A DNA stretch of 64,000 nucleotides from Eledone cirrhosa (taxonomy: Eukaryota): contig OZ024741.1 in the NCBI GenBank assembly GCA_964016885.1, positions 39,680,001 to 39,744,000 of the forward strand, given 5' to 3'. Under the pieces are notes generated by a model, which was not told the origin of the DNA, did not search any database, and saw only the letters and a list, made by a program, of their open reading frames with translations. The stretch's first letter is position 1; every line of letters starts with the position of its first letter. Shown here one piece after another: positions 7,294 to 60,891 of the stretch. The position numbers and the translations under genes were made by a program.

Positions 7294-7384
7294 CGTATCT
7301 GATGAACTTGCGAATCGAGAGTCAGGTTCGATCCACAAAAAGATCACAGCTCGAGCTGTTCACCGGAGAAACAATTGTAATACG
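7294..7384 (+). ncRNA. Type I hammerhead, extended domain II
   Basis: cgtat-CTGATGA-[62 nt structured]-GAAA-CAATTG-TA-atacg; palindromic stem III, GUA cleavage triplet, perfect 5-bp stem I. Confidence 0.75.
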
Positions 7385-8699
7385 GTAATAAATTGTGTTC
7401 CGATGCATCACTGATTCTTCCTTTTCCATATTGTATATATATATATATATATATATATATATATATATATATATATATATAAGTAAGGTTGTAAGGCAGG
7501 TCCAATTTGAACTCAGAAGTTATACGTTATGCGGGAAGGCGTTTAATATGATACTGATATACACGCAAACATATACACATATGTACACACACACGCACAC
7601 ACACACACACACACACACACACACACACACACACACACACACACACACACACACACACGCACACACACACACACACACACACACACACACACACACACAC
7701 ACACACACACATATACATATATATAAATATGTGTCTGTGTATGTAATTTGTATATATAGAGAGAGGGAGAGAGAGAGAGAGATAGATTGATAGAGAAAGA
7801 AAGAAAGAGAGAGGTTGAGACAGACAGACAGAAATACAAAAAGTGATATGTGTGTGTGTGTGTGTGTGTGTGTGTGTGTGTGTGTGCGTGTGTGTAAGTG
7901 CTTTATATAAGGAAATAAATATGCTTAATATTCAAATTATATTAACGAAGGCTCCTAATTGTTAATTATTGTTAGAGGAAACAACTGTTATATGTAACTG
8001 ATATTCTATATTCCACGCAGGATATATATATATATATATATATATATATATATATATATATATATATATATATGCATGTATGTATGTGTATGTGTGCGTG
8101 TGTGTTTGTGTGTGTGTAGATATATTTATATATATATAATATATATAATACATATGTATATTCATATATATGTACATATATATATATATATATATATATA
8201 TATATATATATATATATATATATATGTACACACATATATCTATATATGAGGTGTGGCATTAAGAATAGCTCATTATTAAGTATCTATTAATATTTTAAGT
8301 ATATTATATTATTATTGTGGTGTATATTTATATCTGAATGATTTTGCATTCTGCTGAGATTTATACTAACGAACTATGACACACACACATATATGTATGT
8401 ATTATGTATGTATGTATGTATGTATGTATGTATGTATGTATGTATGTATGTATGTATGTATGTATGTATGTTCTTCTGGTTTTATAATTTCACAAAGTTT
8501 TACCAATAGAGAGAGAGTCGGTTTCTAACATAGACACAAGACTCTCTCATTGGAATTTACACAACATCAACTAGGTAGATATGTCTGCATGTCCGCATGC
8601 ATGTGTAGGTATGGATGTTATTGTATGTGTGGATGTGCATATTTTGAGTTGTATGTGTGCATATGTATATGCTTTGTACATGTGTATATGCAGTTATTA

Positions 8700-8960
8700 G
8701 ATGCAACATTTTTGGAATGTTTTACATATTTTTACTGTTCCATTAATGGAGTGTACTTGTAATTTCCTAACTAGTTGTGTTCTTTCTGTTCCTGTGAAGC
8801 CTAGCTTCTCAAGATTTGTATTGAGGCAGTTACTACCATATCCTAGTGCCCCAATAATCACAGGCATAAATCTGAAAGTATTGTCAGAGTGGAGTATCTG
8901 CAGATTTCTCATCAGTTCTGCATAAATATTCTCCTTTTCACTAATCTTTGATATTATATT
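8700..8960 (-). pseudogene. C-terminal RLE-endonuclease region of an R4/Dong-like non-LTR retrotransposon
   Basis: KISEKENIYAELMRNLQILH..FRFMPVIIGALG..LEKLGF..LVRKLQ resembles the K..Y..L...PVVIGALG C-terminus of RLE LINEs; homologous to 11335-11640. Confidence 0.7.
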
Positions 8961-9033
8961 GTATGTATGTATGTATGTATGTATGTATGTATGTATGTAT
9001 GTATGTATGTATGTATGTATGTATGTATGTATG

Positions 9034-9345
9034 TTGTGTCAGGCTCTCTCGAGTGCTACTGGTAACATTTAACCCAGTACAACCTGTTTCATGCTTGGGT
9101 CGTCGGCGACTAAACTGGTAACCCCACCAAGCTTGCTTGGTGAGGAGGGTGGTATTTTGGACACCCTGCGGGATGAAATACACGATCCGGCAAAGAGCAG
9201 AGGAACTCAGCAGAGTGAACGGCCATCCAAATAGTACTTTCTTTTTCACCTGGGAGTGAACGTCCCCCAGATGTTATCACAACACCTTTCTAGGAGAGGG
9301 AAACTCTGAAAAAAACCCTGTGGCTTCGGAAGCATCCGATGATGT
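9034..9345 (+). mobile_element. RTE-type 5' UTR fragment (diverged family G 5' end)
   Basis: gggtcgtcggcgactaaactggtaaccccaccaag...acggccatccaaa...tctaggagagggaaactctga, matching 21081-21330 and 48920-49112 (reverse complement). Confidence 0.7.
9051..9118 (+). ncRNA. Possible decayed HDV-like ribozyme
   Basis: P1 gagtgct/catgctt (G-U first pair, CpG-decayed), P2 ccagt/actgg, GG, P4 gtcg-tcgg-cgac, J4/2 ctaa; P3/L3 imperfect. Confidence 0.4.
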
Positions 9346-9558
9346 TGACCAGGTCTCCTTTTCGGGTAGTGTTTATGATGCTCAGAGAGTAGGATTGGTC
9401 GAGTGCAAGGCCTTTCCTCACTTAAAAAAACCTTCAAAGCACCGGCATTGTTTGTCCAGGATATATATATTGGGTATAAGCCCAATGAAGATATCTTCAT
9501 TGGGCTTATACCATTATGTTCACATGAAGTTATGTCACTATCTTAACACCAAATATTA

Positions 9559-9619
9559 TATTTTATCTGACGAAAGCGTACTTAAATATTAGTACCTTTG
9601 AAATACGTATAATAAAATA
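9559..9619 (+). ncRNA. Type I hammerhead (family K)
   Basis: tattttat-CTGACGA-aagcgtact-loop-agtaccttt-GAAA-TACGTA-TA-ataaaata; 8-bp stem I and palindromic stem III. Confidence 0.8.
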
Positions 9620-9957
9620 AATATGGTTTTATAAATATATTTTCCATTCATTAATATTCTTAATATTAATTATACTCTAGATAAACTGTTAAGTGCTTCT
9701 AATCTGTTGTAAAATTAACTTTGTTGAATAATCAACAAACCTTATAACTCATTGTTTATGTTTATATGTATATATATATATATACCACTCCACCCGCCAC
9801 CACCCCTACACGCCCCACACCCTTCCACCACTTGTTTATCTTCATGTTTATTTTTATTTTTATTTGTACCCCTTCCACCGTTTTCCCTCTTTTTTCTAAA
9901 TGTCTCTCCTCCACTCCCTTACACACCCTCGGAATTCTCTTCCCACCCACTTTTCGC

Positions 9958-57957: not shown

Positions 57958-58589
57958 ATGCTTCATAAATATACATATATATATATATATATATATATAT
58001 ATATATATATATATATATATACATACCTAAATACATATTAAATATATATAAATCTGACTTTTTCGAATATGAATAATAATATTCGATTCGTTTGCAATTA
58101 TACAAACACCCTCTGAAGCCATATAAATAGAATGACACCGTCTTCATGATCTTTTGTTTGCATACAAACATATAGATACATAAATGTTTGTGTATATATA
58201 TACAGTATATGTATATATATATGTAAATATATATAATTGTTTCTACTTTTGGCACAAGGCCAGCAATTACACAAGGCCAGTGTATTACTGGTATTTTATT
58301 TTATCGACCCCTATATAATAATTATACATAAATATATATATATATATATATATATATATATATAAAATTGCAAGCTTGAAGAATTATTAGATAAAATATA
58401 TACAGTATTTCCTCTCCCTATTTTACCTAATATTTCTTCAAACTTGCAATTTTATATATAGCCCTGATAAATGATTATTTGCTTAATTAATTCTTCAGTG
58501 AGCCACACCGTGAAAGGTAGCCAAACTCATATATGTATCTGTGACTATGTCTAATTATATACATATATCCCTTTGAATTTAATATATAT

Positions 58590-59045
58590 ATATTGTTATA
58601 CTTTGGGAGGGTCGTGTTGCCAATAAGAAACACACGCACTAGTTGCTTTCACTTCAATTTATTATAAATTAAATTTATAAATTTACGAATTTATAAATTT
58701 CCGGTTGGTTGGTTGGTTCCACAACCAGACGATTGTTCATATATTGTCAAAGTTCTTTCGTCACACATTCTGTGACTTCTTCAGTTCTTTGTTTTTATGC
58801 CTTTCCTTTGTTCTGTCCTACGCCATCTTGTTTTTGTGTGTGTTGTGTGCTTAGTTTGCGCATGTGTTACATCCGGGTGTCTGTGTGTGTTTATATTTGT
58901 TTATTTACATGTTACTGGTTGGTTGTTTGTTCTATGTGTGCGTGTGTTTCTTATTGGCAACATGACCCTCCGAAAGTATAAAAATATCGGTTTCAACACA
59001 CGTTTTCAGATAAAGAATCTTGCTAAACAAATTCAGAAACGAAAT
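58590..59045. mobile_element. Family E element with ~50-bp inverted arms
   Basis: tatactttgggagggtcgtgttgccaataagaaacacacgcac / gtgcgtgtgtttcttattggcaacatgaccctccgaaagtata. Confidence 0.7.
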
Positions 59046-59152
59046 ATATATATATATATATATATATATATATATATATATATATATATATATATATATA
59101 TATATATATCAAAATGAAAATCCGAAGGCAAGGTACAATTCCAATCATTTAA

Positions 59153-59223
59153 TCACACATGTTTCAATAAGAGATAGATCGATTGTGAAGCCATGATCGA
59201 TTATCACTGATCTCATCAGGTGA
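59153..59223 (-). ncRNA. Hammerhead with 47-nt domain II, position 17 apparently deleted
   Basis: tcac-CTGATGA-gatcagtgataatcgat..atcgatctatctcttatt-GAAA-CATG-T-gtga. Confidence 0.6.
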
Positions 59224-59584
59224 AAATGAATTGTCTTCAAATTCTTGATATGAGAGAGAGAAAAAATATATATATATATATATATATATATATATATATA
59301 TATATATATATATATATATTTATATATGTAGAGTTCTATGAAATGAAATATAGGTTTAAAATGTAATTCTAAAGCTAAAAAATCGCAATATATTGTGATA
59401 TAGAATATTATACCGTATTATAGTTATCGACTGAAAGAGACGCTGTGTATATAACTGTGTATATGTGAAGAGATGGATATATATATTTACAACAAAATTA
59501 TAATGTATTTACTTTGCATATATACATATATATATATATGCACACACACACATGTATATGTATATATATATATATATATATATA

Positions 59585-60573
59585 ACGGCGATGAATTAGT
59601 TTTGCGAGGTTTTTGATATGAAATCGTGTGTCGAAACAAATATTGTTATACTTGGGGAGGGTCATATTTGTGTAATATTGCCAGAATTAATAACAGAACA
59701 CACACACTGTTTGGTTGGTTTTCGCTTTTCGCTTCTGTGTCTTTTATATCGGTAATCTAACTTACTCGGTCTTCGATGTTGCCATTGACTGACGAACGGT
59801 CAAAAATAATACAGTTACAATATAGACACAAACACATATATATAGTTTATCAAAGTTCTTTCGTTGTACATCTGCAACATCGTCAGTGGTGCTATTGTTT
59901 CCTCCCGTTACATTATATTTTCTACGCCATCTTTATTTAGTCTGTTTATATATTTATTTATTTCTTTATTTTATTTTGACTTCTTTGTGCATGCGTTTGC
60001 GTGTGTGTATAGTGTTTTGTTTTATGTGTGTTCGTGATTGGGTGACTGTGTATTGGCTAATGTATTCTATCTTGACTAGTGTGTGTTTATATGTGTTTGT
60101 TGTTATTGTGCTTGTGTATGTATTTATTTATTTATTTATCTATTTATTTATTTATACTTCTCTTAGGTCAGTGTTGTTTGTTTGGGTGTTGTTGTTATTC
60201 CATTCATTCTTTCTGTTTAGCCTTGGCCTTCTAAGTTCTATTTCACTGGCCTCTCTGATTTGCCTATCTGCTGGGTCATTTCTATGTTTAGATATTATTC
60301 TAATTTCTATGTTGTCTATGTTACCGTCGTGTTGTTGTCTGGCATGTTCGTATAGTGTCTATAGTGTCTATATAGTGTCATATAGTGTCTATATTGTATC
60401 TGTATTATTTTTGACCGTTGGTCAGTCAATGGCAACATTGAGGACCGAATAAATTAGATTACCGATATAAAAGACACAGAAGCGAAAAGCGAAAACCAAC
60501 CAAACAGTGAGTGTGTTCTGTTATTAATTCTGTCAATATTACACAAATATCACCCTCCCCAAGTATAACAATA
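59585..60573. mobile_element. Family E element with ~190-bp inverted arms
   Basis: 59640-59829 versus 60385-60573; TA-flanked. Confidence 0.8.
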
Positions 60574-60830
60574 TATATATATATATATATATATATATAT
60601 ATATATATATATATATATATATATATATATATATATATATATATATATATATATATATATATATATATATATATACATATATATATATATATTTAACTAC
60701 ATATATATATGTATATATATAAGCAGAAGGGATATTCAATGTGTTGGTAATTCAACATAACTATCCAAGGAAAACTTGAACCGTTAAGGTATTTTCCTTG
60801 GTTATGTCAAAATTTATAAATCACATTTCG

Positions 60831-60891
60831 TATTTTATCTGATGATAGCGTACCAAAGTTTTGGTACCCTTGAAATATATATAATAGAATA
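60831..60891 (+). ncRNA. Type I hammerhead (family K)
   Basis: tattttat-CTGATGA-tagcgtaccaa-agtt-ttggtaccctt-GAAA-TATATA-TA-atagaata; same downstream flank as 9559. Confidence 0.8.

Follow-up and report, generated by a model that had tools for sequence, protein, structure and literature searches.

We analysed a 64,000-nucleotide stretch of the Eledone cirrhosa genome (assembly GCA_964016885.1, contig OZ024741.1, positions 39,680,001 to 39,744,000 of the forward strand; hereafter the window) that carries seven copies of a hammerhead ribozyme motif with a long stem II, which we assign to Penelope-like retroelements (PLEs) of the Hydra clade. The original prediction listed these copies and pointed to a pyrimidine–pyrimidine (Y·Y) mismatch at the fourth pair of stem II (10.4/11.4, here pair 4). 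Scanning the window for the CUGANGA...GAAA motif and then reading the pair 4 bases by coordinate recovered all seven copies, reproduced their domain II lengths (26, 26, 32, 47, 62, 62 and 105 nt) and found the mismatch in every one, as C·C in four, U·C in two and C·U in one. The cores lie at 9567 and 60839 (26 nt), 18529 on the minus strand (32 nt), 59219 on the minus strand (47 nt), 7299 on the plus and 7243 on the minus strand (62 nt each) and 18073 on the minus strand (105 nt). The long-stem motifs of the window, including one absent from the original list, are as follows.

7158..7248, minus strand: inverted partner of the 7294 motif; U·C at 7233/7178
7294..7384, plus strand: hammerhead motif with a domain II of 62 nt; pair 1 reads A·A and pair 4 U·C (7309/7364); together with the 7158 copy it makes up an inverted pair bordered by (TA)n
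9559..9619, plus strand: type I hammerhead motif, 26-nt domain II; C10.4 at 9577 opposite C11.4 at 9596; stem III palindrome TACGTA
17941..18073, minus strand: dead hammerhead copy with a domain II of 105 nt; pair 4 reads C·C (18063/17965); stem I has lost its 5' arm
18471..18537, minus strand: hammerhead motif with a domain II of 32 nt; pair 4 reads C·C (18519/18494)
24529..24594 (motif at 24534), plus strand: long-stem hammerhead motif, 36-nt domain II; 7-nt stem III hairpin CCTTTGG; pair 4 is A-U, a counter-example missing from the original list
59150..59223, minus strand: dead hammerhead copy with a domain II of 47 nt; pair 4 reads C·U (59209/59169); two nucleotides deleted at the cleavage site
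60831..60891, plus strand: hammerhead motif akin to the 9559 family, with a domain II of 26 nt; pair 1 reads U·U and pair 4 C·C (60849/60868)

The type I core (CUGANGA, GAAA, U16.1, H17) is present in six of the seven mismatch copies, the copy at 59153 lacking two nucleotides at the site; other loci of its family read CATGTG-T-C, so that the family has U-C at the cleavage site. In the dead copy at 17941, an inverted duplicate of its own 3' part (about 18074-18200) joins directly at C3 and replaces the stem I arm. Pair 1 is non-canonical in four of the seven (U·U, C·A and, twice, A·A). Searches of the window against Rfam gave no match at gathering score, and the 150 rows listed at E<=10 were almost all microsatellite-driven microRNA models. 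Hammerhead-like cores with a short domain II also occur in the window at 9958, 12935, 13687 (-), 22744 (-), 30430 (-), 58784 (-) and 59886 (-); the 22744 type is tied to a Hydra element of the sister group described below (locus L284).

By their motifs and by the homologs found here, the window hammerheads are 3'-terminal motifs of Hydra-clade PLEs. No remnant of a PLE open reading frame (ORF) lies within the window, and the assignment runs through related loci (numbered L) elsewhere in the genome, which is 3.0 Gb in size and rich in microsatellites. DNA searches with three window motifs gave more than 1,100 first-look candidates each, 40 of them scored. Genomic copies are 5'-truncated, often form inverted pairs and end in (TA)n with an optional tail, which together are the signature of a Penelope-like element; the 9559 motif, for example, is the 3' end of a 5'-truncated Hydra-clade PLE at about 9470-9785 that ends at (TA)n. 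The 9559 family is tied to a Hydra endonuclease at L011 and L277, the 7294 family likewise at L481 and L482, with a reverse transcriptase (RT) remnant in L170, the 59150 family to Hydra RT and endonuclease in L273, L274 and L286, and the 17941 family to intact members carrying both domains in L070 and L077; a protein link was sought for the 18471 family and none was found. The ORF in L271 shows RWR, DKT, a CNCRDRSKC linker, CDLC and CKH (RWK in L272), and Hydra-type RT/endonuclease motifs recur in most of 120 homologs; the element protein has its closest named homologs in Argonauta hians. Insertion at (TA)n, tandem and inverted copies and the optional tail are likewise those of the Hydra clade. 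An origin from Naiad elements, the source of the 'HHR_half_core' of Craig et al. 2021, was rejected, since the endonuclease is C-terminal here. The endonuclease lies 0.2-1.6 kb from the hammerhead, a spacing that would take some families beyond 3 kb, whereas the Hydra clade is generally under 3 kb (Craig 2021).

Young, near-intact elements have frames of 745-761 codons and copies 96-99% identical. Two endonuclease queries each returned about 55,000 first-look candidates, and the Hydra clade, described from few families, appears massively expanded in this genome. A Pfam GIY-YIG search did not reach the carriers; it returned Neptune-like endonucleases (CxxPxCxxC linker), only two of which had a short-stem motif downstream. 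Relatives were found neither in a metagenome scan with one RT query nor in a scan of viral contigs. Hammerhead-bearing Hydra PLEs do occur in contigs labelled as bacterial metagenome-assembled genomes or symbionts (L459-L470), which are likely host DNA in those bins, and in L472 (-) fragments of a pol frame resembling that of long terminal repeat (LTR) retroelements adjoin a Hydra element.

To count the feature independently of pair 4, we scanned 600 kb and later a 200-kb hold-out at preset coordinates chosen without regard to hammerheads (of the 600 kb, 200 kb adjoin the window), using a scanner that ignores pair 4 and demands pairing at pairs 2-3 and 5-8; the contrast between mismatch and pairing is thus partly built in, and only the identity of pair 4, C·C, is a free result. 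The 49 long-stem copies in the 600 kb and five in the hold-out make 54, of which 35 are Y·Y at pair 4 (30 C·C) and 17 are paired; in the hold-out alone, four of five are Y·Y. Among the same 54 copies, Y·Y occurs zero to three times at each of pairs 2, 3 and 5-8, and C·C at no pair other than 4. The same scanner found no match in 2.4 Mb of shuffled sequence. Among the blind-scan copies, G·U outnumbers A·C by 31 to 4 on the ribozyme strand, an excess indicating that this is the strand that folds. Extrapolating from 35 copies in 800 kb and four in the 200-kb hold-out gives a rough genome-wide estimate of 0.6-1.3 x 10^5. Descriptors that require a paired stem II would overlook the commonest long-stem hammerhead of this genome.

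Pooling loci from the Eledone genome reduced 500 matches to 416 distinct copies in 49 clusters. Thirty-seven clusters have a 6-nt stem III, of which 26 are Y·Y (19 C·C, 4 C·U and 3 U·C), ten are paired and one is C·A/C·C; among the 12 clusters lacking it, Y·Y appears in two, both single-copy and doubtful. For comparison with the 26 Y·Y clusters we dropped clusters 18, 25, 33 and 35 from the remainder, leaving 19.

The original prediction took the mismatch to recur in four sequence-unrelated families. On protein trees of the elements and homologs gathered here, it is instead one inherited feature of a single Hydra-PLE subclade, not a repeated gain. In a tree of 59 RT-endonuclease segments (X or gaps at breaks), every Y·Y-linked element falls into one clade together with three Argonauta and four unnamed proteins (Shimodaira–Hasegawa (SH) support 1.0), and an 18-row IQ-TREE analysis recovers the same split with 100/99 support, so that all protein-linked carriers belong to one subclade. 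Nine of the ten protein-linked lineages inside it keep Y·Y. Its sister group in this genome lacks the mismatch, with 26-nt and 38-nt stems that have A-U at pair 4 and an 11-nt domain II. Among fetched Hydra loci of other organisms, 64 of 90 have a hammerhead motif, and the blind scanner found Y·Y in none of the 26 long-stem examples. The proposal that the mismatch defines a distinct hammerhead subclass survives in part: it marks a distinct structural variant of which we found no description, and it is not general to long-stem hammerheads, being absent from those 26 and from several families here.

The mismatch has likely been kept by selection, as judged from how slowly it has changed. Amino acid identity among linked lineages is 30-76%, and four-fold sites are near saturation (0.32 identical against 0.28 for random, 974 sites). 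Y·Y was retained across this distance while neighbouring pairs turned over; pairs 2 and 3 have run through all orientations. Of the 26 Y·Y clusters, 23 have C at 10.4 and 22 have C at 11.4; entropy at pairs 2-3 is 1.3-1.9 bit, compared with 0.5-0.6 at pair 4. Unpaired sites are expected to change more quickly than paired sites, yet pair 4 changes more slowly: on a nine-lineage tree it needs 2+2 changes, the same number as pair 5, with more required at pairs 1-3, 6 and 8. The larger clusters together supply 251 copies. At pair 4 these show three changes, each confined to one copy, and no variant common to two copies, whereas the other 14 positions together hold 27 shared variants (Poisson P about 0.02, calculated by hand). 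A hand-picked ten-row alignment of Y·Y copies bears out the statement that surrounding pairs covary while the mismatch stays: seven of the eight stem II pairs change on both sides, pair 4 is unpaired in all ten rows and C10.4 is as invariant as the core. In the alignment as a whole, 90.6% of cells are paired and 13 of 16 pairs over three helices show changes on both sides, the motif being open at stem I. The loop beyond the distal helix varies, with domain II ranging from 20 to 116 nt, and the distance of the mismatch from the core is constant. Traits accompanying Y·Y are a variable pair 1, a purine at 10.5 (26/26 clusters, against 12/19 others) and U15.2-A16.2 (20/26 against 1/19).

Folding predictions suggest what such a mismatch might do. 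The predicted probability of pair 10.3 has a median of 0.58 in the 26 Y·Y clusters, rises to at least 0.82 after in-silico pairing of position 4 and is at least 0.92 in 18 of the 19 non-Y·Y clusters; in 25 of the 26 the same change also makes domain II more stable, by about 2-7 kcal/mol. Of the 37 clusters that have a 6-nt stem III, six carry G-C at pair 1 and 14 have that pair open. Stem III in the Y·Y clusters consists of 6-nt palindromes, and cofolding gave a strand-swapped dimer for one of five copies tried (L061). A slipped register, with C10.4 bulged and G10.3 paired to C11.4, occurs in the predicted fold of the 9559 copy and was rejected, being impossible in most families.

Our favoured explanation, which we hold to be about as likely as not, is that the inherited 1x1 pyrimidine loop is a weak spot under selection, loosening the helix next to the core and recognised by the RT-endonuclease of the element itself. 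The conserved unit would be a shape, namely three weak pairs, a 1x1 pyrimidine loop and at least four further pairs beneath a free loop, in which the core-proximal pairs are predicted to form only partly, and fully if position 4 were paired. Given the 6-nt palindromic stem III and the non-canonical pairs 1 and 15.2/16.2, the naked RNA is likely slow and would cleave poorly even as a dimer. Metazoan PLE hammerheads have been reported as slow (available text of PMC4209133), and the sole reconstituted one, from Anolis, cleaves only with its protein (available text of PMC11167929). The element protein could bind the shape formed by the 3-bp helix, the Y·Y and the distal helix, either completing the fold or marking the RNA as self, which would tie the cutting of tandem transcripts to assembly of the ribonucleoprotein (RNP). 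Selection would act on source elements only, while genomic copies decay. A stronger version, which we put forward only tentatively, is that these hammerheads, in about 10^5 copies, have traded the ribozyme's loop–loop contact for a protein-read C·C loop and become obligate RNP ribozymes, switched on by the element's telomerase-like RT and marking self RNA among dozens of co-resident families.

Several observations weigh against a protein-read weak spot. Hydra elements of the sister group and of other organisms get by with long stems that pair throughout, so there is no general steric need for the mismatch. Position 4 is paired in ten of the 37 clusters that have a 6-nt stem III, and most of the ten lack a protein link; these may be further losses. 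In the abundant 82-nt family, nested in the clade with moderate support (84/92), 25 of the 26 copies carry G-C as pair 4; this family is most simply read as a reversal, and because it thrives, the mismatch can be lost and is not essential. Motif changes in the element protein within the clade are indistinguishable from shared ancestry, several linked ORFs are only partial, and the RT link of the 60831 motif (core 60839) runs solely through an inverted neighbouring copy in L064. In Anolis, moreover, cleavage is unneeded for insertion in vitro (available text of PMC11167929).

Four other explanations compete with this one. The original prediction had suggested a tertiary contact, and it is conceivable, if unlikely, that the loop is an RNA-only receptor that lies at the site of packing between stems I and II in the active fold, replaces the loop I–loop II contact and speeds cleavage at low Mg2+. 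Its constant distance from the core fits, as it sits where a canonical stem II of 4 bp would have its last pair (helix II length from the available text of PMC4209133), and so do the universal purine at 10.5 noted above and a U at 1.7 in 18/26 Y·Y clusters against 8/19 others. The clusters are not independent, however, the purine may persist merely through A-U/G·U/G-C exchange, and position 1.7 lies inside a continuous 8-bp stem in several families. Folding also predicts weakening, with pairs 1 and 15.2/16.2 non-canonical too. A contact of the canonical loop–loop kind finds no footing here: stem I has no conserved internal loop, and loop II is free in length and sequence. We looked for covariation of a stem I partner with the mismatch type and found none, nor any conserved stem I partner. 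Slightly less probable again is that the mismatch simply attenuates the ribozyme or helps it to unwind, needing no specific partner; it would then stop the ribozyme from being locked on by its long stem II, or ease read-through by the RT. The in-silico stabilisation in 25 of 26 clusters is what this would predict, and the authors of the work on the eel element UnaL2 propose the same role for a hinge in its 3' stem (available text of PMC1636434). Yet any mismatch at any nearby pair would then serve, whereas the position is always pair 4 and the mismatch always a C-containing Y·Y; a family with a purine mismatch was not found, one decayed C·A copy apart.

The remaining two explanations we consider improbable. 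The two Cs might be conserved independently of each other and of the ribozyme, for instance as part of a promoter or splice signal in the pseudo-LTR (pLTR), leaving the mismatch as a by-product. PLE pLTRs contain promoters and introns overlapping the hammerhead, and the step from Y10.4 to R10.5 resembles the pyrimidine–purine (YR) step of the initiator rule in 26/26 clusters. Constraint on 10.4 alone, however, would allow a pairing G at 11.4, which is seen in none of the 26, and the flanks share no common sequence motif; a splice donor at 10.5-10.6 was rejected, as GT is present in only some families. The least probable, by a hair, is a neutral relic of one ancestor, with which the single origin and the loss in at least one successful family agree. 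Against it stand the near-saturated silent sites and the turnover of neighbouring pairs, and a C-containing Y·Y in seven of eight deep lineages has a chance near 1e-5 (window base composition, calculated by hand).

The mismatch offers a two-base conserved handle on the role of PLE hammerheads and on the reason for their slowness in isolation. The 82-nt family would serve as a natural paired control within the same clade, and the young elements suit tests of protein-assisted cleavage.

Other hammerhead families were encountered elsewhere in the genome. A young family at L321:540-1560 (also L323 and L342), none of whose members neighbours the window, has a fully paired 97-nt domain II in head-to-tail units of about 1.0 kb, copies 99-100% alike and no PLE protein match, and looks like a retrozyme-like non-autonomous element. 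L486:300-2420 is an array whose 310-bp units all carry a hammerhead core of the short-stem type; an inversion lies in its middle. A family at L069:2380 (+), L063:8099 (+) and L206 has a U3-A8 core variant (TTGATAA), a 57-61-nt domain II and an apparent single bulged C at 10.3. Roughly 68 kb past the window end, L047 holds a paired-type homeobox exon among repeats (about 7930-8590, plus strand), which we take to be Pitx-like. For PLE-linked hammerheads at large, Lünse et al. in 2017 are said to have counted about 150,000 variants.

We found no published description of the Y·Y mismatch in paper text, figures being outside the search and an earlier notice possible; the available text of PMC3088659, PMC6765202, PMC13725137, PMC12192606 and bioRxiv 10.64898/2026.07.22.740005 makes no mention of it. 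The only paper found that joins hammerhead ribozyme, cephalopod and Penelope is Craig et al. 2021 (PMC8557442, in its available parts), whose Hydra-clade hammerheads (File S2, including Hydra-1_Obim) resemble ours in clade, 3' position, (TA)n targets, palindromic stem III and a frequent U·U at pair 1. They have a short, fully paired stem II and a stem III mostly of 7-8 nt with C15.2-G16.2, compared with a domain II of 20-116 nt, a 6-nt stem III palindrome and U15.2-A16.2 in 20 of 26 clusters here, and an internal Y·Y flanked by helices appears, by eye, in none of the 26 Hydra rows. The minimal PLE hammerheads with short helix III of Cervera and De la Peña 2014 (PMC4209133, in its available parts) are likewise type I and dimer-dependent, with a longer helix II, inverted pairs 100-700 bp apart and thousands of truncated copies. 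Their consensus, an extra base after A9 and a conserved G10.1-C11.1, does not hold here, where pair 1 varies. The 56 rows of their Fig. S3 show by eye no C·C at pair 4 and one Clonorchis row with U·U, and the D. virilis hammerhead has a single bulged base in helix II. In both alignments the descriptors favour paired stems.

Functional parallels come from further afield. The Anolis element PAc, of the Poseidon clade (Frangieh et al. 2024, PMC11167929), is also a PLE whose hammerhead needs the element protein and is our model for the proposed mechanism; it differs in belonging to another clade, and the word 'mismatch' is absent from the available main text. In the eel long interspersed nuclear element UnaL2, a U-U mismatch hinge in the 3' stem is required for efficient retrotransposition (Nomura et al. 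2006, available text of PMC1636434). As here, a pyrimidine mismatch splits a stem at the 3' end of a retroelement RNA, and in UnaL2 it is needed for mobility; that stem, however, is not a ribozyme, combines a bulged C with the U-U and belongs to an unrelated element. Chrysovirus type I hammerheads (available text of PMC13725137) share a long helix II with a conserved mid-stem defect and no clear loop–loop contact, whereas their defect is a bulged A in a 6-bp stem and the ribozymes are monomeric, fast and viral. Set beside these systems, the Eledone mismatch is real, likely selected and apparently undescribed; it is a variant, confined to one lineage, of a ribozyme that is already known and belongs to an element clade that is known too.

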